A DNA stretch of 64,000 nt from an uncultured virus (IMG/VR IMGVR_UViG_3300025168_000059) (IMGVR_UViG_3300025168_000059); one strand, 5' to 3'; shown: positions 1-45,722, counted from the first letter of the stretch. Made by a program: numbers and translations. Notes: generated by a model from the sequence alone, not told the origin.

Positions 1-3000
1 TGTACAAGCTTCCTAGCTTTACCCCCAACAATTTTATTTCCTTCTTGATCAGTAAATTCTGTTAAAGCATCAAAATATTCTAGTGCTTTCCCAAGTTTAG
101 ATTGAGGATTAAACCTCCCTATATCTGAAACTGCTGCTCCCTCACTAAACCAATACTGTGTTTTAGCCCAAGCAAGATCAGATTTAGACATAAACTGACT
201 AGCAACTGCTTCTTGAGCCATAGTTAAATTATCAAGAATTAATTGATTTGCTCCTTGCAGTAAGTTAAACGATAACGTACTCATTGCAGTAAATGCATTT
301 AAACTTCCTACCGCTTTAGTTAAAGAAATTCCTCTCCACTCACTTTTTAATTCATTTTGACCAAACACTACCATATCAATCCATTCGTCAAGATGCTTAA
401 ATGTATTAGACTCTCCTTCTTTTAGTAAAGGCATTTTAAAGCCCATAGCTTCTGCAGTTTTTTGTACATACTCAATACCTGAAGAGTTTTCTTCTAATAC
501 TTTTCTATTTTTAAGAATATCTCTAAAAAGCATTATAGAACCTAAAGCTTCTGATTTAGCTTGATAATTGTGGGCCATATGTCTAAACTGATATAAACTA
601 CTAGCTATATCTCTAGACACATCGTTAGCAGAAACACTATTAGTATAGTATACTGGCACATTTTTATTTAACTCTCCACTATTTTGATCATAAGTACCAA
701 ACTGATCATCTGTTTCTACAAGAGAAAAACTTTCTTTAAGCATGTCTTTTGTACCTGCTACAGCTCCCTGTTGTCTTAGCCTATCAAAATCTTTTTTTCT
801 AATAGAAGGCATTAAATAAGAAAATTTATCCCAAGAGTTTTTATCCATACGTTTACCCCCAATTAACTGTTGGCCTTTTTGCATTTCTTCTAAAACAAAA
901 TCATAGTATTCTTTTAATCTAGGATCTCCTTGTATTTTAGTGTATTTTACATTAGTGTACTTAGATTTTTTAGGTCTTACCCAATCTCTTCTAGGACTAT
1001 TAGTAAAAGAATTATAGTTATTATCTTTAAATTTTTGAAGCTCTTTAATACGCCCTACTTGCATAGAATATGCATCACTATCTTCTTTACCTTCTTCTTT
1101 TAGTTTTACTCTAGATTTTTTAGCGTCAGCTATTTGTTTATTTATTACAATTAATTCTTCTTTCCAAGTGTCAATAGGTTCACTATTTTGTCTATCCCAA
1201 GTTGCCTCTTCTTGCCTAAGTTTTTTGTAGTTATTTGATAATTTCCACGCCGCATAATTAGCTTTAAAACTTGCCTCATCCTGCCCCTCTTCTTTTGTTG
1301 GTTGACCGTGTTTTACATTTAGCTTTTTAATAAATTCTGATTTATCATTATAATATTTATCTGCATCAATAGGGTTAACTAAGGATAATCTTTTTTTACC
1401 TTTAATTGTTACCTCTTCTAGTAAATCTTCATTTAATTTAGCAACATCAGACTCAGATCTTCCTTCAGCAAATTTATCATAAGCACTGCTTAACTCAGAT
1501 TTAAACTCACGAGTCATGTCATTCTTTTTTAAATCAGCTTCTTGTACAGATTTAACAAACAATTGTATAGTCTTATCGTTACTGTAAATTAATGGGTCTA
1601 ATAAATATGAAAATCTACTTTTATCTTTATGGGCAGCTCTTAACTGTTTAACTAATGACCCATAATTAGGAATCATTTCATTTTTAAGTTGCTCTACTTT
1701 TAATGCTACTTTTGAATCTAAAAATTCTAATTCAGTAATATCACCATTATTATAGCTTTTTTTAAGTTCTGCATATTCTAAAGACTCAGTGTCTAAACCT
1801 TGGGTTCTTTTATACTTAATAGTATTATCAATTTGTGCTTGCAGTTGTGAATCAATTGCTTTATTGTGGTAACCAGATAAAAACTGGGCCATTACAGGAA
1901 TTACATTATCATTAAATTTTTTGTCTAGTACTAAAGCTGTGTTTAATATAGAATCTACTTTATCTTCTAGAGCATTAAATTTACTTTCATCTAAAACTTT
2001 ATCTTCATCTTTTTTAACAAGCAAAACTCTTTTAATAGATTGCATTACATCTAGCCCGTCTAATTCAGATTTTAGAGTATACATTTTACTCATATTCTCT
2101 AAAGTAGCTCTTTCATTTAACGGTAACTCCATTATATTGTCATACTGATTAATAGCTGACAATAACGTTCTACCCATACTATTTACAGTATCTAACAAGT
2201 CTTCTACTTTATTAACTCTGTTTAAACCTTCCTTAAGATTTTGTAATTGATATACTCTTTTTTCTCTTTCTGTTGCGGGAAGCTGTTCTACTTCATAAAG
2301 TTCTGACGCTATTCTTACTTTTAAATTTTGTACAATTTCTGTAAAGTTTTGCTGATCTCTTGATTGCTGAGTATAAGGACTTAGAGGATTGATCATTCCT
2401 TCAGCTCGCAATTGTTTTGCAAACATTTCTTCAGCAATTACCGCTGCAGCATTAGGTTGTACACCAAAAAGTTTTCCAAACGCTCTTAATATTCTATTAA
2501 TAAGTTGTTGCAGTGGACTAGGGTCCTTTCTTACAATTCTAGCGCCTTCTAGGCCAATTGCTGTAGCTAGAACTTCTTTGTCTAACCTTTCACCGGTTAA
2601 TTCAGGGTATTGTTGTGCAACTCTATCATACAAAGGACTTGCTTTAAGATCTGCTATAGCCTTAGCTACAACAGGGTCGTTAATACCTAACATATCAATA
2701 TAGATATGACCAAACTCATGATATGCCGTGTCTTCTTTAACTTTATTTGGGTTAATAACAACAAGTGGATTAACTTCACCTGGCCTTACTTCCCCTAAAC
2801 TCTCTAGCTCTGTATCATACTGCACATCTACAATAACACCGGCCTTAGCAAATGCTTCTTTTAAATGTACAACTTTTGCTTCAAGTCTATCTATCTCTTC
2901 TTTTTCCATGTCAGAGAATTTACTCTGATCGCTGGTATTCTCTTGTCTTGCTTTTTCATCTAAATAATAATCATCTGTATTTTCTTTCCCCGCTATAAAT

Positions 3001-3395
3001 CTAGCATATTGATCTAATTCAGTTTGATCCTCATACGTAAATTCAGCTGTTTCAGGGCCTTCAGTAGGAATACTTTGCAAAATACTAGGATTTATATCTA
3101 AACTATGCAGCTCAGATTCTCTAGAATAGATAGTTTTTGGAGTTGTTTTTATAAACGTAGTTTTTAATAGACCAGGATATTTACTATTTATACGCTTAAT
3201 TTCTCTTAAACTAGGTTGTAAATTAGCTTGTATTAAATATGTAGAACCATTACGTCTTGTAGCAATGCCGTTACCTTTTAATATTTTATACACTGCTTCT
3301 GCACTTTTCTTTTCAGAGGCCGTGTTGTCCATATACCCATACAACTCTGTATATAATTTACTTTCTACTCCGTTTATATAATATTTACACGCCAT
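1..3395 (-). CDS. Giant virion/ejection protein with zincin-like HExxH metalloprotease motif (3' end runs off the window)
   Basis: Not in the ORF track because it is truncated. ATG at 3395 (MACKYYINGVESKLYTELYG...). In-frame TAYHEFGHIY (HEFGH at 2706-2720) with a downstream KEVLA glutamate. Lies next to the vRNAP, as the large zincin-containing proteins of crAss-like phages do. Confidence 0.8.
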   Translation of the reverse strand, partial: MACKYYINGVESKLYTELYGYMDNTASEKKSAEAVYKILKGNGIATRRNGSTYLIQANLQPSLREIKRINSKYPGLLKTTFIKTTPKTIYSRESELHSLDINPSILQSIPTEGPETAEFTYEDQTELDQYARFIAGKENTDDYYLDEKARQENTSDQSKFSDMEKEEIDRLEAKVVHLKEAFAKAGVIVDVQYDTELESLGEVRPGEVNPLVVINPNKVKEDTAYHEFGHIYIDMLGINDPVVAKAIADLKASPLYDRVAQQYPELTGERLDKEVLATAIGLEGARIVRKDPSPLQQLINRILRAFGKLFGVQPNAAAVIAEEMFAKQLRAEGMINPLSPYTQQSRDQQNFTEIVQNLKVRIASELYEVEQLPATEREKRVYQLQNLKEGLNRVNKVEDLLDTVNSMGRTLLSAINQYDNIMELPLNERATLENMSKMYTLKSELDGLDVMQSIKRVLLVKKDEDKVLDESKFNALEDKVDSILNTALVLDKKFNDNVIPVMAQFLSGYHNKAIDSQLQAQIDNTIKYKRTQGLDTESLEYAELKKSYNNGDITELEFLDSKVALKVEQLKNEMIPNYGSLVKQLRAAHKDKSRFSYLLDPLIYSNDKTIQLFVKSVQEADLKKNDMTREFKSELSSAYDKFAEGRSESDVAKLNEDLLEEVTIKGKKRLSLVNPIDADKYYNDKSEFIKKLNVKHGQPTKEEGQDEASFKANYAAWKLSNNYKKLRQEEATWDRQNSEPIDTWKEELIVINKQIADAKKSRVKLKEEGKEDSDAYSMQVGRIKELQKFKDNNYNSFTNSPRRDWVRPKKSKYTNVKYTKIQGDPRLKEYYDFVLEEMQKGQQLIGGKRMDKNSWDKFSYLMPSIRKKDFDRLRQQGAVAGTKDMLKESFSLVETDDQFGTYDQNSGELNKNVPVYYTNSVSANDVSRDIASSLYQFRHMAHNYQAKSEALGSIMLFRDILKNRKVLEENSSGIEYVQKTAEAMGFKMPLLKEGESNTFKHLDEWIDMVVFGQNELKSEWRGISLTKAVGSLNAFTAMSTLSFNLLQGANQLILDNLTMAQEAVASQFMSKSDLAWAKTQYWFSEGAAVSDIGRFNPQSKLGKALEYFDALTEFTDQEGNKIVGGKARKLV

Positions 3396-3400
3396 ATATT

Positions 3401-6400
3401 TTATGTTTTACAATACTTTTTAGCTTGATTATCTTCGTTTTCAGTTATAGGAGCTACAGGTTTATTATACCTAAATCCTCCTGGCTTTTCAATTGTAGTG
3501 TTAGGTGCAAAATTAACTAAACTTTCTGAATTACCGCTAGAAACTCCAGACTCATTTAATTTTCTAGATTTACCTAACAAAGATAGTTTTCTATATTTAA
3601 GTCCTTCTACTCTAACAAACACGTTAGCTTGACCTGTAGAATAAGAGATAAAATAGTCTACAGCTTCATTGCTATTACTATAAATACTTTCATTTCCTGA
3701 AGACGCAGTTACAAATCCTTGTGGATCCATTTTTACCCTTACCTTTTTTAGTAATGGGGCGCCCCCTGGTTTTTCTGTGCCGTACGTTCTTATAAACTCA
3801 TGTATAAAATTATCAAAGTAATCTGTTCTAGCTAACACATCTTGCTCTTGTCTAAAAAACTCTACAGGACTTTGTTTGCTTGGATTTAATATAGATGTTG
3901 TATAAACTTCTGTAGGAATTAAATCTATATAGCTTCCGTATGTTGGACTAAACCCACTAGTTAGTAATTGATTTGTAACTAATAGTTTTGCAAAATCACT
4001 TATTTCTGAGTTATTACTAGTAAGTAACGCACTAAAATCTTTTGTATAAGCATTTTTATCTGTAGTTGATATACCTACAGGAACATCTAGTCTTAGTAAA
4101 AATAAATTTGTTTCAATATTAGACGGGTCTTCTTGCAGGTTTTGCATTATTAAATTTGAATTTAACTCTGGATAAGTTGTTCTAAGATAGTCTAACTTAG
4201 TTATTAAGTTATCACTAGGGTTAACATACATATTTAGAAAAGTATCTTTAGAAAGTGGGCCTCCATCTACAAAAGGACTGTGTGGTTGAGTCATAATTTT
4301 TAAAAACAAAGCTCTATCTACTAACTTATGCTGATCAGCTGTAAGTTTATTAGCGCCTATTACATCAATAAGATTATCTTTAAAATATTTAAATGCTGGT
4401 GAATTGTTTATAAATCCTACCCTAGCGTTTTCTTTTAAAACTGTTGTAAATATATTTCTATAAGCAACTGCTATAGGATTTAAAGATGTATTTGTACCTT
4501 GATTATGAAGTATAACTTCTTCTGCGCCTTGTATTATACTATCTGGATTATTTAAATATTGTTGCTCTACATCAATCCACGCATTAATAGAAGAAGTTTC
4601 GTTTAAATTATCTAAATTATCAGGTGTAATTATTTTATTTACTGTTTGTAGTGCTCTACCAGCTATAAAGAATTTACTAAAATTAGATAAATATTCTTTT
4701 TGATTTTTAGGATTTGATTCTACTAAGTTATTTTCTAACTCCATGATATTCATAGGTACTACACTTCTTAATTTTAAATCAGAAATACCGTATTTTTTAG
4801 CTACTTTATCTATAGACTGATAAAACTCTCCTAAAGACTTTGAGTTGTTTGTGGCATCTTCAATTACTTCTCTAATAATAGGTTGATTTACAAAATATAA
4901 TGATGTTTCTATAGGAATTCCTACACTGTAAAATAATCCTAATACAGGATTAGTATATACACTATCATTTATATCTAATTGTATAGGCTCTTTAGCCGCA
5001 TCTACCGCTGCTGATAAATGCTCAGAAATATTAGAGTCTGTATAAATACCTAAATCGTCTTTAGTTTTACCTATTTCACTGTAAGTATTTTCTCCAATGC
5101 TAGGCATGTATTCAGACTTAAGTCTTAACACTCCAGATGCTTCTGCTACATTTCTACCTGCTAAATGATTAGACCACAAACCAATAAGTTTGCTCCCTTC
5201 TTTAGCTCTTTCTTCCATAGCTAATTCTGCCATAGGATTATTATAATCTATTGCAGTGTCTACACCTGTTTTATCTTCTAAAAACTCTTTAGTGTTTATT
5301 AAATTTTCAGTATCTAAAGGTTTAATAACTTCTTCTAAATGTTTATTATCTGTAAGTATAGATTTAAATGTGTCAAATACTACATTGTTTCTTTCTTTTC
5401 TAGACATTTCAGATGGCTGCTTACTATAATCCGGCTTTATTGCGTTTCCTTCTATATCTGTTTCAGATAAAATTATATATAGTTTATCAATATCAAAATC
5501 AGAACCTTGTTGTACTGTAATAGCTCCAGGTACCATAATTGCTTTTTCATGTGACTCTGGTAAGAAATCTACTACTTCCATAAATAAAGCAGAGTTTTTA
5601 CCTTGCTGAGGTATACGATACCCAATCATTTGTAATAACTCTACAGATACATCCGCTATTGGCGTTCCTGGTGTTATTCCTATAGCACTAGCCTTTATTC
5701 TGACTTGCGCTGCATTGATTCCATCATAAAATTTTAATTCACCACTTACTTCATGGCCCCCAAGCTCTGCAATTTGTACTAATTCTTTACCTTTTAGCTT
5801 TTGATTAAATAATTCATTATTATACATACTCATAAATATACCTTCAAACTTAGCTTGATAATTAGGAAAAGCTAATGGTATTTTAAAAGTCCAATCAAAT
5901 GCTCCGTTAGGAACTATAGATAACGCATCAAGATAGTTATTAGGTAAATCTCTCTCTTTAATTTGATCAACTATTCTGTCTCTAACTTTTATTAAGTAGT
6001 TTAACTTAGCATCTTTATATTCTTTTGTTCCCTGGTTATTCTTTAGTCTTTCCAGCTCTGTAATTCCTAACTCTTTGTCTAGATTTCTTGCGTCTTCTCT
6101 TATATTCTCAGCAACAGCTTCTCCATATATCTGATTTAAAGCTGATCCATCAACTTTACTATCTCCTAGACTATACTCTCCAGTAGGATCTATATTTGCA
6201 ATTAGATTTTTTCTTATTTGCCTGTTAAATGTAACTTCGTCTTTTATTGCTCTAGGCATAATTTGAGGAAACCTTAACATATTAGAATCCATTATAGTTG
6301 GGCTTGAAAAATCTAAAGCTTCAGAACTTTGAAAATCTTGTACATTTTTTCTGGCTCCTTTAGTTGCGCTCTCTGTATTTACTACGTCTATACCATTATT

Positions 6401-9400
6401 CATGGCTTCTAGCATATTATTTAAATATGGGTAAAACATAGCTAGTTCTGGCGTTACAACTGTATATGAATTTTTATCCATATATAATGCATTAACTCCA
6501 TTTTCTAAAGAAAGCTCTTCATGGAAGGGTTTTAATGGATATATAGGTCTTGTATTTCCATTATTATCTACATACTGACCTTTATTAGGATCTTGTGCAT
6601 TTCTAAATGCTTCTTCATCTAAAATCTCATTCCATTGCCCCATTCCTTGCATAATACCACGATACATAGGTAGACTAATAAATGATTGTGCATCTGATTT
6701 ATTTACACTACGATAATTATCTGCAAGTTCTTTTGCAACAGGATCTAGCATTGCTCCTTCAGGAGTCAAAGCTTTTTCTAAACTGTCTGCAACATCATTA
6801 GCTCTGTCTAAGTCTGTAAAATCAAAGTCTTTTATAGTTAAAGTATTATATGTAGGATTCATCCCATACTCAGGATTTGTTTCAGACATACCTTTAATAA
6901 ACAATTTGTTTCCAGGAGTTTTTAAAAGAGCCATACGTTTATAAAAATCTTCTGCATTTTTAGAAAAGCTAAATCCTCCTCTTAATACTTTAGTTATTTC
7001 TATTTTACCTATAAAGTTTTCAAATGTAAAATCTTTAATAAGTTTATTTTTTTCTGCCGTATTTATAAGATCTGTATTTACATCTGCTCCTAAATCTATT
7101 CCATATTTATCTATACGAGCTTTTAAATCTTGTTCGTACTCTAATAATTTTGCTTCAACTGCTGATATGTTGTCTCCTAACATTTGTTCAAACTCTTCTC
7201 GCTGTGCAAAATCTGCATCTAACACATAAGATTTCACATAGTCAGACATAAGCTTACCGTCCTTTAGAGTTAAGTTTTGTAGCCCAGATATTTGAGTCAT
7301 TGTAAAAGCTCCTCCATTCATTGCATAAGGACTAGATCCTTTTTTATAGTGATACCCCTCAATAAATGTACTTGGGTCATTTTCTTCTATAAACTCAATA
7401 GCTTGATTCATTCTAGCTAAATCTTGTAGTATTATATTTTCTATTAACTGGCTTTTATTAGTAGTCATTCCATACTTTGAGTATGTACTAATTCTAGGCA
7501 AAGTTAAAAAATCTAAAGATGATCTACCAGCTTGTACAGGAATTGCTATTTTAGTAAAATCTTTATTTCCTCTGTTTTCATATGCTAGTAGTCTTTCTAT
7601 TAAAGATATTTTACTAGATTGATTTCCATAATCAGAACTAGCAACAAACTCATCTGCCGCCTTATAAGAATCTAGTACTTCATGTACAAAATTTTCTCTA
7701 ACATTTTCACTAGCATGCAGCGCACTAATTAAAGGAGATGAATGTTTTACACTTGCAAATGGCCTGTTTAATGGATCATTTAACAATTGGTTTAAAATTC
7801 TTATTGCGTCATCTGATTCTTTAGGATTATTTATTTGACTTGTTAGTTCGTGCAGCCTAGTAGGCAAATTTACTGGGTAGTATTGTTTACCTGTCCCGCT
7901 TATAAAAGACCCAAAAGGATTGTTTTCAAATAAAGTAGAAAGTTCTGTAATCTTATCTATTAAACTACTTTGATCTTTATATATATCTTTACCTGCTTTA
8001 ACTGTCTCTAAAAGCTTTACAAAACTTTCTCCTGATTTAAATATAAACTGATTAAATAAGTTTCTACCTGTTAATCCTTCTTCATTACCTAGTATGTAGT
8101 AATCTAATAAATTGTCTTGTGTAGTTTCTAAAGTAGGGCCATATTGTATACCTAAAGTCCATAAGTATTCTCCTAAAACATTAATGTCTTCAGCATTAAA
8201 CTCTCCATTTTTTTTATTTCTAACATTATTTATAGCTTCCCATAACTCTGTTAGTTTTTCTACTTTACCTTCTTTTACAGTTAGTTTGTTGTCAACTCCT
8301 AATGAATATAAAGCTCTTGGTTTTGGTATTTGAGTTTCTGTAGAATTCTGCTTAAACCTTTCTTTAGCTTTTTTATTTACTTGACTTTGATTAGAGTTTA
8401 TTATTTTATTAGTAATACTAATCTGACCTGTTACTGGATCTGTAAAGCTTTCATTTTTAAATAAAATAAAATTATTATACGCAGTTTTAAAATTAGTAAA
8501 TAATGCAGCTTCTTCTTGAGCTGTTAAGTTTTCTACTTTATTTTTTAATACTTCAGCCCCAACATTATACTGTGCACGAAAATCTAAGTTACTTTTCATT
8601 TCTGCCCATGTAGGCTGACCTACGGCAGCTTCAGACATTATAGCATAAGCTTTATCCATAGATAAAATAGTAGGGTATCCAAAAACATTTAGTTCTCCTG
8701 TTTCAATATTTCCTATTACAGCTTTTGCTTCTGCAGATAATTTATCTTGAGGATTTTCTTCTAGTCTAGAGATATTATGTATTCTTTCTGGAGTGTCATC
8801 AAACTCTTCCATAGAACCTACTCTATCTTTTAGCTTTAACCCATAGGCAGATAGACTATCTTTAATTATTTCTCTAACGCCTACATTTTCTATATTTCCT
8901 GTAGTCTCATTAAAAGAAGAATTCCAATTATGATAAGCTGCTGTAAATACTTCCCATGCAATATGATCTTCAGTGCCCGCTTCGTTTAAGCCTACTCCTT
9001 CAGGTAAAGAGTTAAACATTGCCTCAGCCCCTTGCTCTATAAGAACATCATAAGCTTGTTGGGCCTGTTCAAAATCTGCCCCTGGAAACGCCTCCATTAA
9101 AATCTTATTTGCTAAAGCTCCTTTAGATATAGAATCTTTACCTATACCAAAGTATCTTTGAACTGCTTCAGAGCTATTAAATTGTCTTGGATTTTGTCTT
9201 CGCACTTTAGTTATAAATCCTACTAAAGTATTTATTAAAGCTTCTTGCACCTCTCTATCTAAGTTTAATGCATTGCTAGAATCTTTTATCTCTGCAGTTA
9301 TAGGAAAAGTTTCTCCTTTAAAGTTTTTAAAAGAATAAAATCCTTTTTCTGCAACTAATTTAGGTTCTCCATTTTCATCTGTAAGAAATAAGTCTGGAGT

Positions 9401-9574
9401 ATAAGTTTTTTCCCAATCTTTACCATACCAAGTTTTAAATTCTTTAGAATAAATTTGTTCATATAAAGTTGTAGCACTCTCTGTGCTTTGAGTAGCCCCA
9501 ATTAATTCTTTATATAATTTAGACTCTTTTCCGTTTGGCAATAAAGCTTTTCCGTTTTGTATTCTACAACTCAT
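3401..9574 (-). CDS. Virion-packaged single-chain two-barrel RNA polymerase (phi14:2 gp66-like)
   Basis: 2057 aa. Catalytic QQGSDFDIDK (DFDID at 5486-5500), upstream GYRIPQQG, plus KR..L..PG and SAAVDAAK motifs. Middle member of a trio of giant genes. Confidence 0.93.
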   Translation of the reverse strand: MSCRIQNGKALLPNGKESKLYKELIGATQSTESATTLYEQIYSKEFKTWYGKDWEKTYTPDLFLTDENGEPKLVAEKGFYSFKNFKGETFPITAEIKDSSNALNLDREVQEALINTLVGFITKVRRQNPRQFNSSEAVQRYFGIGKDSISKGALANKILMEAFPGADFEQAQQAYDVLIEQGAEAMFNSLPEGVGLNEAGTEDHIAWEVFTAAYHNWNSSFNETTGNIENVGVREIIKDSLSAYGLKLKDRVGSMEEFDDTPERIHNISRLEENPQDKLSAEAKAVIGNIETGELNVFGYPTILSMDKAYAIMSEAAVGQPTWAEMKSNLDFRAQYNVGAEVLKNKVENLTAQEEAALFTNFKTAYNNFILFKNESFTDPVTGQISITNKIINSNQSQVNKKAKERFKQNSTETQIPKPRALYSLGVDNKLTVKEGKVEKLTELWEAINNVRNKKNGEFNAEDINVLGEYLWTLGIQYGPTLETTQDNLLDYYILGNEEGLTGRNLFNQFIFKSGESFVKLLETVKAGKDIYKDQSSLIDKITELSTLFENNPFGSFISGTGKQYYPVNLPTRLHELTSQINNPKESDDAIRILNQLLNDPLNRPFASVKHSSPLISALHASENVRENFVHEVLDSYKAADEFVASSDYGNQSSKISLIERLLAYENRGNKDFTKIAIPVQAGRSSLDFLTLPRISTYSKYGMTTNKSQLIENIILQDLARMNQAIEFIEENDPSTFIEGYHYKKGSSPYAMNGGAFTMTQISGLQNLTLKDGKLMSDYVKSYVLDADFAQREEFEQMLGDNISAVEAKLLEYEQDLKARIDKYGIDLGADVNTDLINTAEKNKLIKDFTFENFIGKIEITKVLRGGFSFSKNAEDFYKRMALLKTPGNKLFIKGMSETNPEYGMNPTYNTLTIKDFDFTDLDRANDVADSLEKALTPEGAMLDPVAKELADNYRSVNKSDAQSFISLPMYRGIMQGMGQWNEILDEEAFRNAQDPNKGQYVDNNGNTRPIYPLKPFHEELSLENGVNALYMDKNSYTVVTPELAMFYPYLNNMLEAMNNGIDVVNTESATKGARKNVQDFQSSEALDFSSPTIMDSNMLRFPQIMPRAIKDEVTFNRQIRKNLIANIDPTGEYSLGDSKVDGSALNQIYGEAVAENIREDARNLDKELGITELERLKNNQGTKEYKDAKLNYLIKVRDRIVDQIKERDLPNNYLDALSIVPNGAFDWTFKIPLAFPNYQAKFEGIFMSMYNNELFNQKLKGKELVQIAELGGHEVSGELKFYDGINAAQVRIKASAIGITPGTPIADVSVELLQMIGYRIPQQGKNSALFMEVVDFLPESHEKAIMVPGAITVQQGSDFDIDKLYIILSETDIEGNAIKPDYSKQPSEMSRKERNNVVFDTFKSILTDNKHLEEVIKPLDTENLINTKEFLEDKTGVDTAIDYNNPMAELAMEERAKEGSKLIGLWSNHLAGRNVAEASGVLRLKSEYMPSIGENTYSEIGKTKDDLGIYTDSNISEHLSAAVDAAKEPIQLDINDSVYTNPVLGLFYSVGIPIETSLYFVNQPIIREVIEDATNNSKSLGEFYQSIDKVAKKYGISDLKLRSVVPMNIMELENNLVESNPKNQKEYLSNFSKFFIAGRALQTVNKIITPDNLDNLNETSSINAWIDVEQQYLNNPDSIIQGAEEVILHNQGTNTSLNPIAVAYRNIFTTVLKENARVGFINNSPAFKYFKDNLIDVIGANKLTADQHKLVDRALFLKIMTQPHSPFVDGGPLSKDTFLNMYVNPSDNLITKLDYLRTTYPELNSNLIMQNLQEDPSNIETNLFLLRLDVPVGISTTDKNAYTKDFSALLTSNNSEISDFAKLLVTNQLLTSGFSPTYGSYIDLIPTEVYTTSILNPSKQSPVEFFRQEQDVLARTDYFDNFIHEFIRTYGTEKPGGAPLLKKVRVKMDPQGFVTASSGNESIYSNSNEAVDYFISYSTGQANVFVRVEGLKYRKLSLLGKSRKLNESGVSSGNSESLVNFAPNTTIEKPGGFRYNKPVAPITENEDNQAKKYCKT

Positions 9575-9575
9575 A

Positions 9576-12500
9576 TTATTTACAATTATTGCTTAAGTTA
9601 TCAATTATTCCTTTACTCTTTTTACCTTGTTTAAACTTTTTCTTTTTAGCTGCTGGAGCTTCTGGACTAGTTTCTGCTATCTTAGTATTCTTAATAATCT
9701 CTGGCGCAGTCTCTCCTAGTATATTCCCTTTTTTAAAGGTTACTCTAGGACTGTTAAACATGCTTTCTCCTTTCTTAACTAGATCTGTAGATAGTATAGA
9801 GTTATAACCTGCATCCTGAAGTCTTGGGCCTTCTCCTAACTCTTTAGAGTCAAATAAGTAATCTTGATAAGTATCATGCTGTATTCCGGTCACGGGACTA
9901 AGATAAGGAGTTTTTGAATTCATTAATGCTTTGTCTACATTGTATTTTTTAGTTTCTAAAAAGTTTGATAAATCTTCAACTATATCAATTTTTTCTTTTG
10001 TAGTATCACTTCTACGTCCAGTAAATTCCCCATCTTTTTCAGTTACTAAACTAATTATAGCTTCATTATTATTTATAGCTTTTACAAACTCATCTTCGTT
10101 TATTCTAACTAACTTCCCTAGTTTAGGGCTTTTATATATTATATACTTTTGTCCACTTTTAAACGCATCAAATTTTAAATAACTATTATTAGTATTAGCA
10201 CTTTCTACGTTTGTACTATTAGCTACAATACTTGCAGCTGCTTCATAATTTTTTTCTCCTAAATATTTTATAACTGCTTCTTTAGCCGAAGCATTTAAAT
10301 TAGAAGTCATAGCAATAGATACTCTAGATTTACTTGCAGGATTATTCTCTTGTTTAATAATAATTCCTACTTGATTATTAAATTTATCAGTAACCTCTCT
10401 TGTAATGTCAGTGTTAATATTATCTAACTCATTGTTTTTATTTTTGTCAGGATCTACCTCTCCAAGAGTCCATTGTCCAGTTTTTGGATCTCCTGCAATT
10501 TCGGGCTGACTTATAGCAATTAAAATATCATCGTCTTTTCCAAATACCTCTTTAGGGTTATGAAAGTAAAACTCATTTGTTTCAGAATCTATAGAGTTAT
10601 TAAAATTAGTAGCTAAAATTTGACTTATCTGTGTAGTTACCTTGTCCCCTCTTAATAGTTTATCTACAATTGCTTTTCTATCTTCATTATTAGAAGCCTC
10701 TAACTTGCCTATATAAGCATTACCAATTTTATAGTATATAGGAATTTCAGTCCAAGACTCTTCTGCTTTATTTAGCCTGTCAGACGTATAGTAATCGTTT
10801 TCTATAATCTCAAACTCTATTTCTTCTTCTAATATATTGTCTTTTAACAATAAGTCTGGTTGTAGTAATATAGGTTTACCGTTTAGTTGATCAGGATCTT
10901 TTTCAATAGGAGTTCCTTGACTGTCTACAGGTATTTTATATATAGGATCTTCTGGAGTCCCTACATTAATTACTTCATCTGTGTTTGTTGCAGCTACAAC
11001 ATTAAGCTCTCCGGTAGAGGTAGTTACAGGGTCAGTTTTTACAGCAGGTGTACTAACAAAAGACTCTACTATTCTTTTCCCGGGTTTATTTTCTGCTATT
11101 TTATCATCATTTTCAGCTCTTACTATATTATCATTCATTGTAACCGCTTCTCCATCTTCTTCAGTTACTATAGGCTTAGTAGAGTTCTTTTTTATTTTAT
11201 TATCTAGCAATTTAATAGCATTTTCTAAACCTTTTCGTTCTGCAGGAGACAAATTAGTTACCCCTTGAGAGTCAGGAACTAAAGACTGTAATCTTTTAAG
11301 TTGCTCTTTAAAAGGTTTGTCTTTATGCAGTTTTAAATATTTTAATTCTGCAGCTTTTTCTTCTTTTTCTAACTCTTTAGCTTTCTTTCTAGCATTTACT
11401 TTAGTTTCATCACTTGCATTATCTGTAGCTGCTTTCCTAGCATCTTCTGAAGTTGTAGCGTTTTCTATATCTTCATTTACTTTTTGATCTTGAGCTACTT
11501 GTTTAGCTTCTTCTTGATTTGCTTTTACTGTATCTTCAAATAAATCTTGAAAGTATTTACTTGATGCTAATTTATTGTATCTATCTATAGCTATAGAGCT
11601 GTCTGCAAACAATTCTATGTAGTCTCTTGATAATTTATCAAAAGCAGCTACTTCTGCAGTAACTCCTTTATTTATCATTTTTTGTTTTATTTCATTAAGA
11701 CCTTTAAGTATTATATTAAGCTCAGTTTCTGCATCATACTTTCCATCTTCTACGTTTAATAAATCTTCCCCTGGATTAAGTATTAGATCTATATCAGACT
11801 CTATGTTTACACCATTAAGTTTAGAGCCTCTTTCAATAACATTTTTCATTTGTTTTTGAATGCTTTCTAATCTTTCACTTTTATTTTCTATAGTAGAAGC
11901 ACTTAGTATTAGTTCCGCACGTAAATTTTCTCTTTTATTGTGCACAGCATCTTCAGCTTTTTGCTCTGCCTCAGACTTTCTTAATCTAGTTAAGCCCTGT
12001 GATTTAGGTATTGAAGGAAACATTTCATTTACATTATCATAAACTTTTTCAAACTTGTCTAATTTTTCTTCAATATTTTTTATAACATCAGTTTTAGATT
12101 GGCCTTCTGCTTGTTCTTCTATAGTTAGGTTTGTGTTAAAACCAAACGCTTTTGCAAATTCTACATCACTTAATGATTTTGAATCTTTTAGTTTTTCTTT
12201 AAATACATTAAACGTTCCATTTTGTATAGCCGCAAATGCATTATATTGTATTAACTTAAACTGAGCGTCTTTAAAAGCTTTTATATTACCAACAGTTCCA
12301 TCTGGCATTACTTCTTTTAAAGCATTTTCCATAGCTGTAAGAGCTCTAGATTTAGCGTTATGACTAAGCATTTGATTATTAGCATTATCCATAAAACCTC
12401 CATCAAGTAGAGTTTTTGCATAATCAGCTGCAGTTTTTCTTTGTTTAAAAGGTTTATTTATAATACTACTTCCTCCTGACATACCGCCTCCTACTAAGGC

Positions 12501-13781
12501 ACCCACTAACATTGACTCTAATCCTTCTTGACTTCCTAAAGTTTCTGATAAACCTTTATATAAAGATTCAGTTAAACTTGCAGCTCCCCCATTAAAGTAT
12601 TTATCTGTGTGATAATCTGAAGATAGTATTCCAGATGCAAATTGCCACCCTTCTTGAAATGCTTCAGTTCCGGCACCTACAGCAGTAGGTTTTAGTCTAG
12701 ATACAGTATTTCTAAGTTTTCCGTATATTCCTTTTCTGTCTCCTACAGAGTTAGCTACTTTATTTAATGCGTTTTCAAATGATACATCTTTATTTTTAAT
12801 TCTAGAAGCAGGTTTAAATCCAGCAACTTGCTTACCAAACATTATTAAATTACTCCCCATTAATACTGGCAGCTGATACATAAAGTTTCTATTCCCAGAT
12901 GCATATGAAGCGTCTTCTATACCTTTTAAATCTTCTTCACTAAACTGAGAAGCATCTTCAAATCCTCTTTTTTCCATTTCTAACTCTAATAAAGAATCAT
13001 ATGTATTTTTTTGATTTTCTCTTGCCTCTACAGACGCTTCAGCTAAAGACATGTAAAGTCCCATCTCAGTCATATTAGCTGCATTAACAAATCCTTGTCT
13101 TGTAAATTTACTTCCTTTACCTACAGCACTAGCTACTTTAGTTCCCGTTGATAAAGCTTTAGCAGTATTATACATTTGCATAGCTTTTGCTCCTCTCCCA
13201 ACTAGTCCCACACCTCCAGTTAAAGCTATTGTAGCTATAGACCCTAAACTATACCCAAAACCGTTTGCTACTGTATCTGCCCAAAAGTTAGCGGTACCAA
13301 GCTTTTGCCCTATAGACATGTCTTGCTCTTCTTGAGTTCTATAATTAGGAAAAGATTCCCTCATAGCCTCATTCATTTTATCTATATTTTTCCCAATAAA
13401 ATTATCGTAATAAGCTCCTCCTGTAGCTAACTCTCCTAGACCCGCTACTATCCCTAGAGTATTTTCTGCTACAGCCCCTAATGTAGTAACACCGGCTTTA
13501 AGTAAACCATTCCCCCATTTATCTGCTGTAGATTGATTTTGAGATCGCTCTTCATCCCAGTTAAAAAATCTTGTTGTAGGTACTCCATACTTTTGATATT
13601 TACTTATATCATCTTTATAGATATTAGTAAAATTCATAGAGTCATACGGATGATAATCTTTTACATCTTTACCAGCATAACCTTCATATTTTCCTAATTC
13701 TATAGCTGCTCCACCTCCTCTAGGGCGTCCAGAGGCAGCCTCTTGTAAATTAGTTTGTGGGTTTAGACTAATCTTTACCAT
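9576..13781 (-). CDS. Giant virion/ejection protein with hydrophobic Gly/Ala-rich segments
   Basis: 1401 aa. Gly-rich hydrophobic helices in the N-terminal third (e.g. GFGYSLGSIATIALTGGVGLVG, MLVGALVGGGM). Sits directly before the vRNAP. Confidence 0.7.
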   Translation of the reverse strand: MVKISLNPQTNLQEAASGRPRGGGAAIELGKYEGYAGKDVKDYHPYDSMNFTNIYKDDISKYQKYGVPTTRFFNWDEERSQNQSTADKWGNGLLKAGVTTLGAVAENTLGIVAGLGELATGGAYYDNFIGKNIDKMNEAMRESFPNYRTQEEQDMSIGQKLGTANFWADTVANGFGYSLGSIATIALTGGVGLVGRGAKAMQMYNTAKALSTGTKVASAVGKGSKFTRQGFVNAANMTEMGLYMSLAEASVEARENQKNTYDSLLELEMEKRGFEDASQFSEEDLKGIEDASYASGNRNFMYQLPVLMGSNLIMFGKQVAGFKPASRIKNKDVSFENALNKVANSVGDRKGIYGKLRNTVSRLKPTAVGAGTEAFQEGWQFASGILSSDYHTDKYFNGGAASLTESLYKGLSETLGSQEGLESMLVGALVGGGMSGGSSIINKPFKQRKTAADYAKTLLDGGFMDNANNQMLSHNAKSRALTAMENALKEVMPDGTVGNIKAFKDAQFKLIQYNAFAAIQNGTFNVFKEKLKDSKSLSDVEFAKAFGFNTNLTIEEQAEGQSKTDVIKNIEEKLDKFEKVYDNVNEMFPSIPKSQGLTRLRKSEAEQKAEDAVHNKRENLRAELILSASTIENKSERLESIQKQMKNVIERGSKLNGVNIESDIDLILNPGEDLLNVEDGKYDAETELNIILKGLNEIKQKMINKGVTAEVAAFDKLSRDYIELFADSSIAIDRYNKLASSKYFQDLFEDTVKANQEEAKQVAQDQKVNEDIENATTSEDARKAATDNASDETKVNARKKAKELEKEEKAAELKYLKLHKDKPFKEQLKRLQSLVPDSQGVTNLSPAERKGLENAIKLLDNKIKKNSTKPIVTEEDGEAVTMNDNIVRAENDDKIAENKPGKRIVESFVSTPAVKTDPVTTSTGELNVVAATNTDEVINVGTPEDPIYKIPVDSQGTPIEKDPDQLNGKPILLQPDLLLKDNILEEEIEFEIIENDYYTSDRLNKAEESWTEIPIYYKIGNAYIGKLEASNNEDRKAIVDKLLRGDKVTTQISQILATNFNNSIDSETNEFYFHNPKEVFGKDDDILIAISQPEIAGDPKTGQWTLGEVDPDKNKNNELDNINTDITREVTDKFNNQVGIIIKQENNPASKSRVSIAMTSNLNASAKEAVIKYLGEKNYEAAASIVANSTNVESANTNNSYLKFDAFKSGQKYIIYKSPKLGKLVRINEDEFVKAINNNEAIISLVTEKDGEFTGRRSDTTKEKIDIVEDLSNFLETKKYNVDKALMNSKTPYLSPVTGIQHDTYQDYLFDSKELGEGPRLQDAGYNSILSTDLVKKGESMFNSPRVTFKKGNILGETAPEIIKNTKIAETSPEAPAAKKKKFKQGKKSKGIIDNLSNNCK

Positions 13782-13784
13782 ATG

Positions 13785-16178
13785 TTATATATCTTGATTA
13801 TTTCCTTTTAAAGAATCTTCTATTTTTATTAAACCTTCTTCTATTCCATGCGGAATATCATTAATTATAACTTTTTCTCGTGCATAATCAAATGTTACAG
13901 TTCCTTCAAAAATGTCTGGAGACCATTGTCCTGTTATATTCGAGTGTACACCAGATCTGTATAAAGTTCTAAGTCTGTATGACATAGAGTTAGTATACTC
14001 ATCTACAGAGTCTATACTAAATTGAGACGCATCTGCATAGTATGTTTCAATTTTTCCTTCTTCATTTTTAAATGGAATAGCTATTAATGCCATACCATCA
14101 GGCCTAGAAACATGAACTAGCCCTAATTGTTCTTTTACAATTGTAGGCGCTTTATCATCAGTCATTAGCCACACATCTTTTTCTGATTCTACTAGAGCTT
14201 TATAAGTAGTTGGGTTTCCGTTTTTATCCATTAATTGGAAGTTATCTGAATTAGGTAGACCTTCTTTAAGGAATGTTTGAATAGCTTTAGTTGTTTTTCC
14301 AGTTGGATCATTAAAACTAGTCATTACAACTGCATCTGTTTTAATTTCTTCATCTTTTAAAAACTTATTTATTTTAGCTTTTCCATCATCTACTATTGAC
14401 ATATGACTAGAAATCATCTTATCTATTCCTTGACTTGTTTCACCCGTAAAATCGTTTTTAATTCCTTCTGCAAGTTCAGGTGTTTCTAGTACTAGAGGAT
14501 CTACATCTTCCATATTTGCAGATTTAAAGTTTTGAGTTGCAATAATATTTACAACTTGTTCTTTTAATTCTCGATTATTATTTAACTCAGTAATCATTTC
14601 TCCAGGACCAAGACCGGATCTCCCTAATTGATCAAAAGCAGATTTTACAGAATTCATATCTAGATTAAATTTCTGATTTTCTAGATAGGTAATACCGTCA
14701 TAAGAAGCATTTAAATTAGAAGCTCCTTTTGCTATCATATCATTATATGCTTGAGAAGACATTTTATGCTCACTTATAAAAGCTTCTTCTAATTTAAGTT
14801 CTATTAACTCAGACATTCTTTGATGGTGTTGTATTTCTTTAGACATACGTCTAGCTTCACCATTACTTATTTTATAAGCAGAAGCTATTTCATCATATTG
14901 TTCTGCAGTTGTTGCGTTTAAAGCTATATCTACAAACTCTTGACCTTTTTCAGTAGCATATCCTTTAATAACATCTATTGAGTTACTATATGCTGCCTCT
15001 TTAGAAGTAATAGTATTTCCACCTAAAGGTTCTACTACTAAGCCATCAACTCCTACATTGTATTTAATATTAGGGAGATTTCCTCCTGTACCAGAGTTTG
15101 AAGCTTTAAGGCTAGATCCTTCTGTAATATCTCTAACTATTTTTTTAGATTTAACTCCTGCGTATTTTGTAATAGCAGCATCTGCGTAGCCGGCTCTTTT
15201 AGCGTCATAAGATAAAGTAGTTAGTATATCAACCTCACTTATGCCCGAATCTATAGCTTCTAGTATAGCTGATTCTTGCATTTCTAAATAGTCTAATTGT
15301 GCTTTTTCTGCTTTATTTTTTTTCTTACCTTCTAGTTTAGTTATTTCAGTATCTAGATTAGTTAAAGCTTTATCTAACTGCTCTGCAGCTAAGGATTTAT
15401 TTGTATCAGGATTAACATCTCCTTTAAAGTAATTTTCTAAATGTGCTTTTTGTTGAATAGAAGAGTTAACATTAGGCTGGTTTAATACACTAGTAACTAC
15501 ACTTTGTACTAATGCAGGATCTAAATATTTTGTATATTCTCCTTGTTTTATGTAATAAGCAGGAGATTGTGTTTGCTCGTTAAATCCTTGTACAATTTCC
15601 ATGTTAGAATCATATGGAGTTTCTACACCTGTAGTGTCCATTTCAGACATTACTACGTCTTTCATGTGTTTAATAATTTCTTCTTCTATATTTACATCAT
15701 GTACGTAAGAGGCCCCATTAAACAAAGAGTCTTCTTGTACACTGCCGTCTAAATTATATTGAACACCTTTATAGTTATATAGCGCTTCATTTAATTTACC
15801 ATCTTTTGTTTCAGAATCTATTTTACCTGATTGATAATCTTTTTGTACTGAAGCAGCATAAGAGTCATATCTTTCTTTACTTGTTTTAATAGGATTATAA
15901 TCATTCATAAAAGCTCTAGCATCTTTTTGGATGGCTGTACCTTTCATTTCATAATTACCTTGATCTGCTCTTTGCTTTAACTTAGCATTATATGTTTCTA
16001 TAAGAGATTTTTTAGTATCATCATCTTGATCTAAAGATTGCATTTCTAAAACAGCTTGTGCTATTGCATCATCAGCTGCTACATTTTGCAAATATCTATC
16101 TCTAAACATTTTTGTCATCTCAACTGCTCCAGTATCTCTATACATTGATTGTGGAGCGGGTAATTGGTATCTTGCCAT
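13785..16178 (-). CDS. Virion cargo/ejection protein
   Basis: 797 aa, helical. Lies between the muzzle gene and the vRNAP trio, the crAss-like cargo-gene position. Confidence 0.55.
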   Translation of the reverse strand: MARYQLPAPQSMYRDTGAVEMTKMFRDRYLQNVAADDAIAQAVLEMQSLDQDDDTKKSLIETYNAKLKQRADQGNYEMKGTAIQKDARAFMNDYNPIKTSKERYDSYAASVQKDYQSGKIDSETKDGKLNEALYNYKGVQYNLDGSVQEDSLFNGASYVHDVNIEEEIIKHMKDVVMSEMDTTGVETPYDSNMEIVQGFNEQTQSPAYYIKQGEYTKYLDPALVQSVVTSVLNQPNVNSSIQQKAHLENYFKGDVNPDTNKSLAAEQLDKALTNLDTEITKLEGKKKNKAEKAQLDYLEMQESAILEAIDSGISEVDILTTLSYDAKRAGYADAAITKYAGVKSKKIVRDITEGSSLKASNSGTGGNLPNIKYNVGVDGLVVEPLGGNTITSKEAAYSNSIDVIKGYATEKGQEFVDIALNATTAEQYDEIASAYKISNGEARRMSKEIQHHQRMSELIELKLEEAFISEHKMSSQAYNDMIAKGASNLNASYDGITYLENQKFNLDMNSVKSAFDQLGRSGLGPGEMITELNNNRELKEQVVNIIATQNFKSANMEDVDPLVLETPELAEGIKNDFTGETSQGIDKMISSHMSIVDDGKAKINKFLKDEEIKTDAVVMTSFNDPTGKTTKAIQTFLKEGLPNSDNFQLMDKNGNPTTYKALVESEKDVWLMTDDKAPTIVKEQLGLVHVSRPDGMALIAIPFKNEEGKIETYYADASQFSIDSVDEYTNSMSYRLRTLYRSGVHSNITGQWSPDIFEGTVTFDYAREKVIINDIPHGIEEGLIKIEDSLKGNNQDI

Positions 16179-16183
16179 ATTAA

Positions 16184-19100: not shown

Positions 19101-19210
19101 GTTAACCCCCCAACAGTAAGAGTATCTTGGATTTTATCCATCGTATTATATTTTACTCCTCCTGATTGATACTTATCTCTTAGTTTATCTATGAATTTTT
19201 TTCTATACAT
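16184..19210 (-). CDS. Multi-module virion cargo protein (PT-TG-like N-terminus, GxxHxxGG/EVEDGE motif, PG-binding-like segment)
   Basis: 1008 aa. GLTPGIGIIPDAVN...ALNAGSMIPGLG resembles a pre-toxin TG domain. Also FNGQTHDEGGI..EVEDGE, VIAYQ...LGEDGIFGNDT and many xQxGG motifs. Confidence 0.6.
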   Translation of the reverse strand: MYRKKFIDKLRDKYQSGGVKYNTMDKIQDTLTVGGLTPGIGIIPDAVNTGISAIRSGYNYLTGDKARAKSQMGDLALNAGSMIPGLGQAAGIAKLGTRGAKVMKGIKVAKKVKKGKAAFSLAESIKLPTPGLGKGPLLALNAGENNIDFGLNLNKMQTGGMYDQMQQYQQGGMALPGGEMQPIPGSDAVQFNGQTHDEGGIMMDSQTEVEDGETMDKVSMAKKGGKRDYFFSSYLKKGGRSFADMHKDILRDGGDQNEINLLAKMQEQAAGRNPNKVQTAKLGGVMKYQTGGELETAENAYNTHEATKPTPPTFNLKEPKFKKTSYFGRTPTTAEMRADKKKEEAFQKELESYNNAKAEHEQAMSNYQTELSEWENTESELSDAIEQEQMIVDQQEREVEQKAAEQKAKNDELVARGKELNIPVSEMKTMSVKELENAIKQEELKQTTDLKPDPEREGTTQGQTKETIGGKNYRVDKGSDTEKLINALGDNFPDYWMGKVDQEVLDAAGITDFDAMFNEDGESNYDTVIAYQKAYNAKYGTPDNPKPLGEDGIFGNDTTETAIEKNTTISQALDEVVVEENKTKEIPRIPMQNTVLPSENEGELIQDTGPAPVGGNTDRFDEAAKDLLNLDIQSVEDYEKAEDNLQYNDDTDQWELKPQLSNFTLDTNREIGPQTDSTITKDDVLDDGVTETRDPSPQYTMITNPALTEQTTYTDSEGTEYTLDANNNWFEGDRQLDYDPSESGDLTKVKQNKDRSARIPGAAYLGMAAGIIPAAYSLFHKQPAAQQAEYTPGFKSPVVAKEGRSPRLERYDYNLDISNVGAEVRGMNKYIETSGGGPANMINKMMAFSKGQDAKANIRAAETRANIGVQNTEAQLKQQMTLDNMRRSQQASIFNAQMIRSEAARKDQIDESNTARRQKRQDDMEFQKYAGVSSFASSLQTGFGDILDYKADMAMADAIGSDTGVYNRSTLAYLDNGGRGNLVWDEETKSYKESNKFGGLRRMRNYKK

Positions 19211-19222
19211 AATTTTTAATTT

Positions 19223-20587: not shown

Positions 20588-20588
20588 A

Positions 20589-45206: not shown

Positions 45207-45722
45207 TTAACATTCGCAACCACAACTTCCGTCACAAAGCTCTTTTGCTTTTTTATACTTATCAACTATATCTTCATATTCTCCCATTACTGTACTTCCT
45301 CCAGGATTAGAATTTATTTCTTCTACTTTAGCTATAGCTGATTGTAATAATAAATATACTTTCTGAGCTTTTGCTAAAGCACTAGAACATTTAGGACAAT
45401 CACATTCGCAGGCTAATAATTCATTAGTTAATTTTGTTAAACAACAATCTATATCACAATGCACTAAAACTGCTTTAGAAATAGTAGGGGTAGTTAACGA
45501 TCCTTCTGTTACTGAAATTATAAAAACTCCTGTACTAGAAGATAAAGTGTTAAGAGGTATACGTAATTTAGTAACTAGACTACTAAATGTCAAATTATAA
45601 GACGCTGGAGATCCTCCCGGTAGGCTCGTTACTGTAAGTGTTCCGGACGAAGAGGTTGTTATAGGTCTATAGCTAACATCTATGCTTTTACAAAAATTAA
45701 CGGATTTTATATTTAATGCCAT
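45207..45722 (-). CDS. Cys-rich structural protein (tail hub-like)
   Basis: 171 aa. CDIDCC, CECDCPKC and terminal CDGSCGCEC. Confidence 0.45.
   Translation of the reverse strand: MALNIKSVNFCKSIDVSYRPITTSSSGTLTVTSLPGGSPASYNLTFSSLVTKLRIPLNTLSSSTGVFIISVTEGSLTTPTISKAVLVHCDIDCCLTKLTNELLACECDCPKCSSALAKAQKVYLLLQSAIAKVEEINSNPGGSTVMGEYEDIVDKYKKAKELCDGSCGCEC

Follow-up and report, generated by a model that had tools for sequence, protein, structure and literature searches.

Organization of the cargo block

The 64,000-nt stretch of DNA analysed here (the window), from the uncultured virus IMGVR_UViG_3300025168_000059, carries a block of giant cargo genes in which three consecutive products, referred to below as A, B and C, hold cysteine only beside the ends that face each other across the gene boundaries. 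The minus strand carries all large genes of this region, in the order muzzle gene, genes for proteins of 464, 1008 and 797 amino acids (aa), A, B and C.

20589–26288, minus strand: muzzle gene (PF25731 crAss_MUZ, E 2e-39)
13785–20617, minus strand: three genes, 464, 1008 and 797 aa, between the muzzle gene and A
9576–13781, minus strand: gene A, 1401 aa, first link of the proposed chain, homologue of crAss001 gp47 and phi14:2 gp67
3401–9574, minus strand: gene B, 2057 aa, virion RNA polymerase with a DFDID catalytic motif
3–3395, minus strand: gene C, zincin-type cargo protein of at least 1131 aa that runs off the window, last link of the proposed chain
2706–2720, minus strand: HEFGH zincin motif of C (residues 226–230), with H226, E227 and H230 invariant in sets of 67 and 26 sequences

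A aligns with crAss001 gp47 (BLASTP E 3e-11) and phi14:2 g067 (E 1e-7) and matches PHROG 32390, a family of unknown function (E 5e-18), which is the only PHROG match among these proteins and is obtained for A alone. B matches PDB entry 6vr4_A (the two-barrel RNA polymerase phi14:2 gp66, E 2.4e-19), phi14:2 g066 (BLASTP E 6e-21) and crAss001 gp50 (E 3e-28), and its DFDID motif occupies residues 1359–1363, of which D1359, F1360, D1361 and D1363 are invariant in 45 sequences. C aligns with phi14:2 g065 (BLASTP E 7e-16) and crAss001 gp49 (E 7e-15), and its putative zincin character is taken from the HEFGH motif and the literature. Identity between the window proteins and those of cultured crassviruses is only ∼22–26%, and A, B, C and the three proteins encoded between the muzzle gene and A were all without a Pfam match. 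The latter three had no BLASTP match to crAss001 gp45 or gp46 at E 1e-3 or better, and by position only they would be the counterparts of these crAss001 cargo genes. The same window encodes a capsid protein (PF23898 Crass_capsid, E 8e-81), a P22-like portal, and PHROG-matched terminase and portal. With a polymerase homologue, flanking homologues and a crass-type structural module, the block is identified at the sequence level as a Crassvirales RNA polymerase cargo block, and A, B and C are most likely packed and injected by the phage.

Cysteine is confined to the facing termini of A, B and C

The four cysteine codons of the block are as follows.

9582–9584, minus strand: TGT codon of A Cys1400, the sole cysteine of A, one residue from the C-end (tail ...GIIDNLSNNCK)
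9566–9568, minus strand: TGT codon of B Cys3 (MSC...), B starting MSCRIQNGKALLPNGKESKLYKELIG
3410–3412, minus strand: TGT codon of B Cys2055, two residues from the C-end (tail ...NEDNQAKKYCKT), B ending ...KKYCKT
3387–3389, minus strand: TGT codon of C Cys3 (MAC...), C starting MACKYYINGVESKLYTELYG, the sole cysteine in the 1131 aa seen

The termini quoted in the preliminary description of this DNA (the starts of B and C given above, A ending ...NNCK and B ending ...KYCKT) are exact, and its observation that the 1401-aa protein and the virion RNA polymerase carry cysteine at their termini only holds, as Cys1400 is the sole cysteine of A and Cys3 and Cys2055 are all those of B. Because C runs off the window, its own C-end was inferred from the full-length homologue P0064 (1452 aa, 97% identical to C), in which there is no further cysteine and none at the C-end. 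The three upstream proteins (797, 1008 and 464 aa) contain zero cysteines and lie outside the cysteine chain. Overall, the six cargo genes encode 4 cysteines in 6858 aa (0.058%) versus 210 in 12896 aa (1.63%) for the other minus-strand ORFs (open reading frames) of the window (binomial P ∼1e-42), a frequency far under that of the rest of the proteome, as is characteristic of cysteine-suppressed ejection proteins. The chance that four randomly placed cysteines would all fall within 3 residues of a facing terminus is ∼1e-11. Neither the depletion nor the terminal placement is due to chance. The intergenic gaps at A-B and B-C are 1 and 5 nt, respectively, and the genes are out of frame; a read-through or frameshift fusion of A-B or B-C was considered for the window and rejected, as nothing points to fusion.

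The terminal cysteines are conserved in each family

Conservation of the terminal cysteines in homologues, the check put forward in the preliminary description, bears out the pattern in all three families. In the A family exactly one cysteine is present, 0–4 residues from the C-end, in 43 of 45 proteins, the other two being truncated. The B search returned 59 proteins, 46 of them at 34% identity or above and 9 distant ones at 22–28%. Among the 46, Cys3 is present in every homologue and invariant in the alignment, a cysteine lies 0–5 residues from the C-end in 45, and internal cysteine is absent from 45; the lone homologue without the C-terminal cysteine (P0014) matches the family except over its last few residues. 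The distant homologues also keep both ends, with a cysteine at position 3–5 in 8/9 and one 0–4 residues from the end in 9/9, and they hold 2–15 internal cysteines as well. In the C family a cysteine falls within the first 10 residues of 116 of 120 homologues, and is the sole cysteine in 107; the four exceptions are two N-truncated calls (P0077 and P0130), an upstream-start call (P0150) and P0170. A cysteine in the last 10 residues was found in 2 of the 120, both short forms with aberrant ends. Within the families the sequence around the terminal cysteines diverges widely, the cysteine itself is kept, and Lys or Arg flanks both cysteines at most junctions.

A small N-terminal module accompanies the downstream cysteine

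In the window translated in six frames, NG.ES.L[YF] is found at two places only, the N-termini of B and C. The segments concerned, with two tandem examples from cultured phages, are listed here.

9440–9574, minus strand: N-terminal module of B, residues 1–45 (Cys3, hairpin, NGKESKLYKEL, helix pair)
2946–3395, minus strand: N-terminal module of C, residues 1–150 (predicted alpha/beta domain, Cys3 tip, linker)
cr1_1 (L083) 13972–14230 and cr118_1 (L008) 20501–20760: tandem module copies (C-P-N variant, then NG..S.LF)

Alignment of the B and C family profiles over the first 45 residues (hhalign) gives a probability of 91% and an E-value of 9.6e-7, and over 150 residues 50 columns align (E 2e-5), such that the common N-terminal motif reported earlier for B and C corresponds to a real module, specific to gene breaks. 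Its core consists of C-[KR], then a hairpin whose length varies, G-x-x-S-x-L-[FY]-x-x-L and a second helix. N-terminal sequences recognized by the B profile are those of phi14:2 gp66 (residues 1–54), crAss001 gp49, cr106_1 C and phi17:2 gp036, with E-values that are relative to a 16-sequence set. In Suoliviridae C proteins this profile matches twice in tandem, and as one of the two copies is a 'C-P-N...E-F-x-E-L' variant, this variant belongs to the module. C-type proteins of other phages are likewise matched by the B profile at their N-termini, and therefore the module moves between chain positions.

A profile of the C module (residues 1–150) matched 0 of 39 proteins of at least 3000 aa and 55 of 187 shorter ones, whereas the adjacent zincin profile matched 37 of the same 39. 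Judged from these profile comparisons, the N-terminal module is real and restricted to gene breaks. Weak module-like segments within fusions (E 0.002–0.18) were judged unconvincing. An AlphaFold2 model of C residues 1–340 (26 sequences, mean predicted local distance difference test score, pLDDT, of 70) places residues 11–110 in a compact alpha/beta domain (pLDDT 74–92) in which the ESKLY stretch begins helix 13–24, puts Cys3 on a less confident tip (residues 1–10, pLDDT 58), and predicts a disordered linker (residues 114–164, pLDDT <50) ahead of the zincin region. Foldseek of this model against the PDB returned no significant fold (best E 0.22, weak zinc-peptidase rows only), a wide VIA-align search gave a best Z of 5.4, within noise, and neither 6VR4 nor the A4 structure discussed below was among the fold matches. 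A phmmer search of PDB sequences with the 60-aa B module returned spurious repeats only. Charge complementarity between tails and heads was considered too; the link between an acidic EEDDNC tail and one module type is anecdotal, comes from closely related phages, and is not used as evidence.

Cysteines occur on both sides of a junction or on neither

We monitored the cysteine content of junctions in the window and 67 IMG/VR loci, taking as a junction any two consecutive same-strand ORFs of at least 400 aa with a gap of −60 to 200 nt, and scoring 10 residues at the C-end of the upstream ORF and 10 at the N-end of the downstream ORF, with the first ATG as start. Of 89 junctions, 74 are unique, and these comprise 59 with cysteine on both sides, 15 with cysteine on neither side and 0 one-sided cases (Fisher p 5e-16, uncorrected for relatedness). 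Thirteen of the 15 cysteine-less junctions lie upstream of A, the exceptions being a pair of unrelated ORFs in L074 and the break within C of L044 described below. The rule extends to cultured crassviruses and is followed in four families of the International Committee on Taxonomy of Viruses, irrespective of where the chain is cut. The arrangements that obey it are listed below, with breaks denoted by slashes.

A/B/C: phi14:2, crAss001, cr106_1 and cr112_1 (Steigviridae); L013, L014, L016 and L020
AB/C: cr118_1, cr4_1, cr53_1, cr1_1 and cr109_1 (Suoliviridae); L012 and L017
A/BC: cr8_1 and cr3_1 (Intestiviridae) and cr127_1 (Crevaviridae)
AB/X/C: L021
Four pieces: L064

As in the window, the phi14:2 proteins carry cysteine at the last residue only (g067), at positions 3 and 2179 only (g066) and at position 3 only (g065), and those of crAss001 at 2339 only (gp47), at 5, 1334 and 2404 (gp50) and at 5 only (gp49). 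Unlike the window, crAss001 has gene A on the strand opposite B and C, as do cr106_1 and cr112_1, and in all three phages the C-terminal cysteine of A is still kept; the signal is thus one at the protein level and not a nucleotide motif of the junction.

In L021 and L064 further proteins are inserted into the series, each with both an N-terminal and a C-terminal cysteine. The AB protein of L021 (3890 aa, next-to-last residue cysteine) is followed by a 1167-aa protein, encoded at L021 14584–18084 and unrelated to the A, B and C references (Cys4 and a next-to-last cysteine), and then by C (Cys4). L064 is divided into four pieces with three cysteine pairs, its 585-aa ORF standing between ORFs of 564 and 2177 aa.

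In three Suoliviridae phages, cr4_1 (L009), cr53_1 (L081) and cr109_1 (L085), the cargo genes contain 18–70 in-frame table-11 stops, and with this stop-codon reassignment in late genes the terminal cysteine pattern is still readable. In cr8_1 (L078), the strand opposite the cargo block carries an annotated thioredoxin gene at 25704–25973, ∼1.3 kb downstream of the block.

Fused forms lack the cysteine pairs and the module

The same domains occur in fused polyproteins in the same A-B-C order as in the split genes. A search of 1.84 billion representatives with C gave 1002 relatives, and 69 long or near-full-length proteins were tabulated from the 150 listed; the counts that follow for two size classes apply among these matches. 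Stand-alone C proteins carry the N-terminal cysteine. Of 24 proteins of at least 4378 aa, 17 have zero cysteines, 2 the N-terminal cysteine alone, 2 one internal cysteine and 3 between 4 and 10 internal cysteines, and none has a C-terminal cysteine. Among 12 proteins of 3168–4041 aa, the N-terminal cysteine is present in 6 (as sole cysteine in 4), 5 are without cysteine and 1 has a single internal one, again with no C-terminal cysteine in any. Most fused A-B-C proteins, 4500–5900 aa in length, hold zero cysteines. L010 (5329 aa) has 0 cysteines, as do all five 5′-open ORFs of L054–56, L069 and L074 (lengths of at least 3998–4624 aa). At the level of the joint, B residue 2046 abuts C residue 152 in the P0051 fusion, and in the A-B fusion P0052 the sole cysteine (3176) lies well past the junction, on the downstream side of the part matching B. 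In BC fusions the N-terminal cysteine stands ∼2000 to 3000 residues from the zincin region.

A tree of the C region (FastTree, 89 rows kept of 203 after a redundancy filter, 922 columns) places at least 12 changes in whether the B-C junction is fused or split, with good branch support for 11 of them. Among the 11 independent pairs, the N-terminal cysteine tracks the split in 8, runs counter to it in 0 and shows no difference in 3 (sign test p 0.0078). The earlier proposal that the C-terminal cysteine of each protein meets the N-terminal cysteine of the next, in the order A, polymerase, zincin, therefore now has comparative support from both the junction census and the tree, and the nature of the bond, which that proposal had given as disulfide or metal, is left at most likely a disulfide. 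As judged from these comparisons, the pairing itself is strongly supported.

Comparison with known ejection systems

The closest analogue comes from a cyanopodophage, A4 (Anabaena phage A-4L, Saffermanviridae), for which the accessible part of a cryo-electron microscopy report (PNAS 2025, PMC12002296) describes a pre-ejectosome in which a disulfide joins gp27 Cys1715 to gp26 Cys5, stabilising a C-terminal helix of gp27 inserted in a cleft of gp26. In the A-4L record Cys1715 is the sole cysteine of gp27 (1717 aa) and Cys5 that of gp26 (1114 aa). Like A, B and C, these are packaged ejection proteins encoded by adjacent same-strand genes with the same cysteine signature, which is found in the window and recurs at 59 of 59 cysteine-bearing junctions. 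No homology was detectable between A4 gp27 or gp26 and the window A, B and C (best BLASTP E 0.09–0.2), and the window system is thus an analogue of A4 and not a member of its family. As far as the accessible text of PMC12002296 goes, A4 differs in that two proteins are linked, not three or more, in that no RNA polymerase is involved and in that the product is a pentameric ring, not a thread, and the same text draws no general rule and no connection to gene fusion or splitting.

Among crassviruses, phi14:2 gp67-gp66-gp65 and crAss001 gp47/gp50/gp49 were found in virions by mass spectrometry (Drobysheva preprint; available text of PMC10172136). According to the latter source, in the part available, crAss001 gp47, gp49 and gp50 occupy the capsid cargo zone, the cargo adjoins the portal and capsid wall, and partial unfolding is required for tail passage. 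The available text of this article (Bayfield 2023, PMC10172136) mentions disulfides at the tail and portal vertex, only for gp57, the tail hub and ring proteins, and does not contain the word 'cysteine'. Neither 'cysteine' nor 'disulfide' occurs in the Drobysheva gp66 preprint, which notes a fused crassvirus cargo polyprotein (citing Yutin et al.), proposes its proteolytic cleavage and is silent on how split forms stay together. The fused polyprotein differs from the split form in being a single chain that has neither cysteine tails nor N-terminal modules. In the literature searched, which fell short of most subscription papers and supplements, there was no earlier description of terminal cysteine pairs in crassvirus cargo.

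The N4-like Schitoviridae offer a second comparison, in that they likewise package a giant RNA polymerase with companions and exclude cysteine nearly completely. In the portion of PMC11445570 consulted, this exclusion (N4 gp50, DEV gp71-gp73) is attributed to envelope passage and disulfide-forming enzymes. Unlike the window, N4-like phages appear from these partial sources to have a single-chain polymerase and to retain no terminal cysteine, and the N4-like polymerase fold is described as unrelated to that of crassviruses in the accessible part of PMC13434306.

A probable cysteine tie between the pieces of a split polyprotein

Taken together, we consider it probable, with a fair margin left for doubt, that A, B and C are tied end to end as the split form of one cargo polyprotein, most likely by disulfides. 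A, B and C would then represent a split crassvirus cargo polyprotein in which a cysteine-cysteine tie replaces the peptide bond of the fused relatives. The upstream cysteine would be presented 0–6 residues from the C-end on a flexible low-complexity tail, and the downstream one at position 3–5, directly before the small N-terminal module. By analogy with A4, a disulfide formed within the assembled particle is the most likely tie. While still in the reducing cytoplasm of the host, the module and tail may first dock non-covalently, with the bond closing later. The product would be a linear A-B-C thread with a topology near that of the fused polyprotein, which may hold the three proteins together during partial unfolding and tail passage and may leave the particle as an ordered chain, and in the new host the bond would be reduced and the polymerase freed. 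Other cysteines would be selected against, as in the N4-like ejection proteins, so that only these pairs form.

Several points weigh against this account. The evidence is a comparative pattern and not chemistry. Many crassviruses inhabit the gut, an anoxic site in which thiols cannot be relied on to oxidize spontaneously, and they nonetheless retain the terminal cysteines, which leaves room for a metal or other bridge. B and C share a module type, and nothing evident would prevent an A-C linkage or self-closure of B. The junction count hinges on the rules chosen, and related genomes are not independent. L044 has a break within C (968 and 521 aa, 19-nt overlap) with zero cysteines, which looks like a frameshift. 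In crAss002 (L082, NC_055828) the first cysteine of gp33 as annotated is residue 35, and the protein fits only if M33 is the start (MSCTPSNP..., family consensus M-S-C); as the annotated start, in the region 7270–7400, lies 32 codons upstream of M-S-C and the gap to gp32 is 170 nt, this start is probably an annotation error. Of the 58 split rows of the tree, three (P0170, P0263 and P0335) are without the N-terminal cysteine; all three align from residue 1 onward with internal sequence of fused relatives and are probably fragments. Finally, cysteine exclusion is not absolute, because gut phages tolerate internal cysteines in B, with 14 in the BC protein of cr8_1.

The best surviving alternative, which we regard as unlikely, is that the cysteines bridge consecutive proteins by means other than a disulfide, namely a shared metal, another cross-link, or mainly non-covalent docking with helper thiols. 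The comparative evidence demonstrates the pairing and not its chemistry, gut crassviruses retain the pairs despite their anoxic habitat, and the Lys or Arg beside both cysteines at most junctions would be in keeping with such a bridge. However, with one cysteine per partner there would be two ligands only, fewer than a structural metal site usually has, the sole solved case with the same signature (A4) is a disulfide, and other disulfides are mentioned for crAss001 virions in the available text of PMC10172136.

It is a good deal less probable that the cysteines tie to other partners, be it the portal or the inside of the capsid, another molecule of the same protein, or, in a closed ring of B, the two ends of B together with an A-C link. 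Partners are indistinguishable from cysteine counts alone, and the position of crAss001 cargo against the portal and capsid wall, as given in the accessible text of PMC10172136, would suit an anchor. Nevertheless, anchoring or homodimers predict neither the strict co-occurrence of cysteines across a junction (0 one-sided cases out of 74) nor cysteine-less outer ends (the N-end of A and the C-end of C), nor the loss of all cysteines in A-B-C fusions, and a ring would need a switch of partners between the A/B/C and AB/C forms.

A cysteine switch, in which C Cys3 would bind the zinc of its own zincin domain as do the propeptides of matrix metalloproteinases and the other terminal cysteines would be unrelated, is very improbable. 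The HEFGH motif of C and the placement of its module ahead of the zincin domain on a linker modelled as flexible are compatible with it, but the same cysteine and module occur on B and on inserted proteins without a zincin, fused forms keep the zincin (37/39) with no module (0/39) and mostly no cysteine, and in BC fusions the cysteine lies ∼2000 to 3000 residues away. That the terminal cysteines are functionless, through common ancestry or as by-products of nucleotide signals (TGT near stop or start codons), is scarcely credible, for although gaps of 1 and 5 nt could constrain the junction sequence and many genomes are mutually related, the tails and heads diverge freely while the cysteine stays at a distance of 0 to 6 residues from the end, an opposite-strand A far from B keeps its cysteine, and new breaks (L021, L064) bring new pairs and fusions lose them, with at least 12 changes of state.

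Related observations outside the chain

The terminal cysteine signature was also seen outside Crassvirales, in Cellulophaga phage phi17:2 (L087, NC_021798; 3303–16807) and Leptolyngbya phage Lbo-JY46 (L086, PP438436; 4723–17629). In phi17:2 the last residue of gp039 (1957 aa) is its sole cysteine, gp038 (517 aa) has Cys4 and a next-to-last cysteine, and a 119-aa ORF follows gp038 before gp036 (1914 aa), whose sole cysteine is residue 3. In Lbo-JY46 the last residue of a 1552-aa protein is its sole cysteine, and the sole cysteine of the next protein (2748 aa) is residue 4.

Residues 176–194 and 423–441 of A, in its N-terminal third, are Gly-rich and moderately hydrophobic (Kyte-Doolittle 1.3–1.4 over 19 residues), and this third is the part of A conserved with gp47 and gp67; from its sequence, it may contact the membrane, as would fit a protein that leads the chain. 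Some homologues of A or B (P0025, P0049, P0060–P0062, P0187, P0199, P0209, P0210 and P0219) carry the precomputed Pfam labels PF18760, PF08719, PF12694 and PF25176, and these labels suggest that variable effector-like domains may be inserted in the giant cargo proteins.

Elsewhere in the window, three proteins of the same structural module are rich in cysteine, in sharp contrast to the cysteine-poor cargo, and are probably external fibre or receptor-binding parts.

40661–45187, minus strand: cysteine-rich protein, 1508 aa, 58 cysteines
32616–35378, minus strand: cysteine-rich protein, 920 aa, 45 cysteines, MAM domain (PF00629, E 5e-20)
45207–45722, minus strand: cysteine-rich protein, 171 aa, 12 cysteines (7%)

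Implications for crassvirus cargo

Crassviruses are the most abundant phages of the human gut, and an open question is by what means ∼0.7 MDa of polymerase cargo is stored in them and sent through their narrow tail. In the accessible text of a 2026 N4 paper, structures for the ejection proteins that crassviruses encode are still called for (PMC13434306). If true, the tie would explain the 1:1:1 ratio and fixed order of three separately made proteins, their freedom from cysteine elsewhere, and the evolutionary interchange of fused and split genes.

More tentatively, crassviruses may share with at least two other lineages of podophages, whose cargo is related, a general and evolvable 'clasp' grammar, in which a module and a cysteine tail suffice to build a disulfide-linked pseudo-polyprotein, a generalisation that we put forward as possible and rather doubtful. 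If it holds, the string would be packed and threaded into the host as one and come apart once reduced in the cytoplasm, and it could be built interchangeably by fusing genes, by splitting them or by inserting cargo, with the 1167-aa protein of L021, the 585-aa protein of L064 and phi17:2 gp038 as candidate inserted cargo. The module would then act as an address label deciding which cargo loads and in what order. In practical terms, the signature of a sole cysteine in the C-tail followed by a sole cysteine at position 3–5 flags mis-called starts and frameshifts, and it flags chained cargo in the genomes of uncultured phages.

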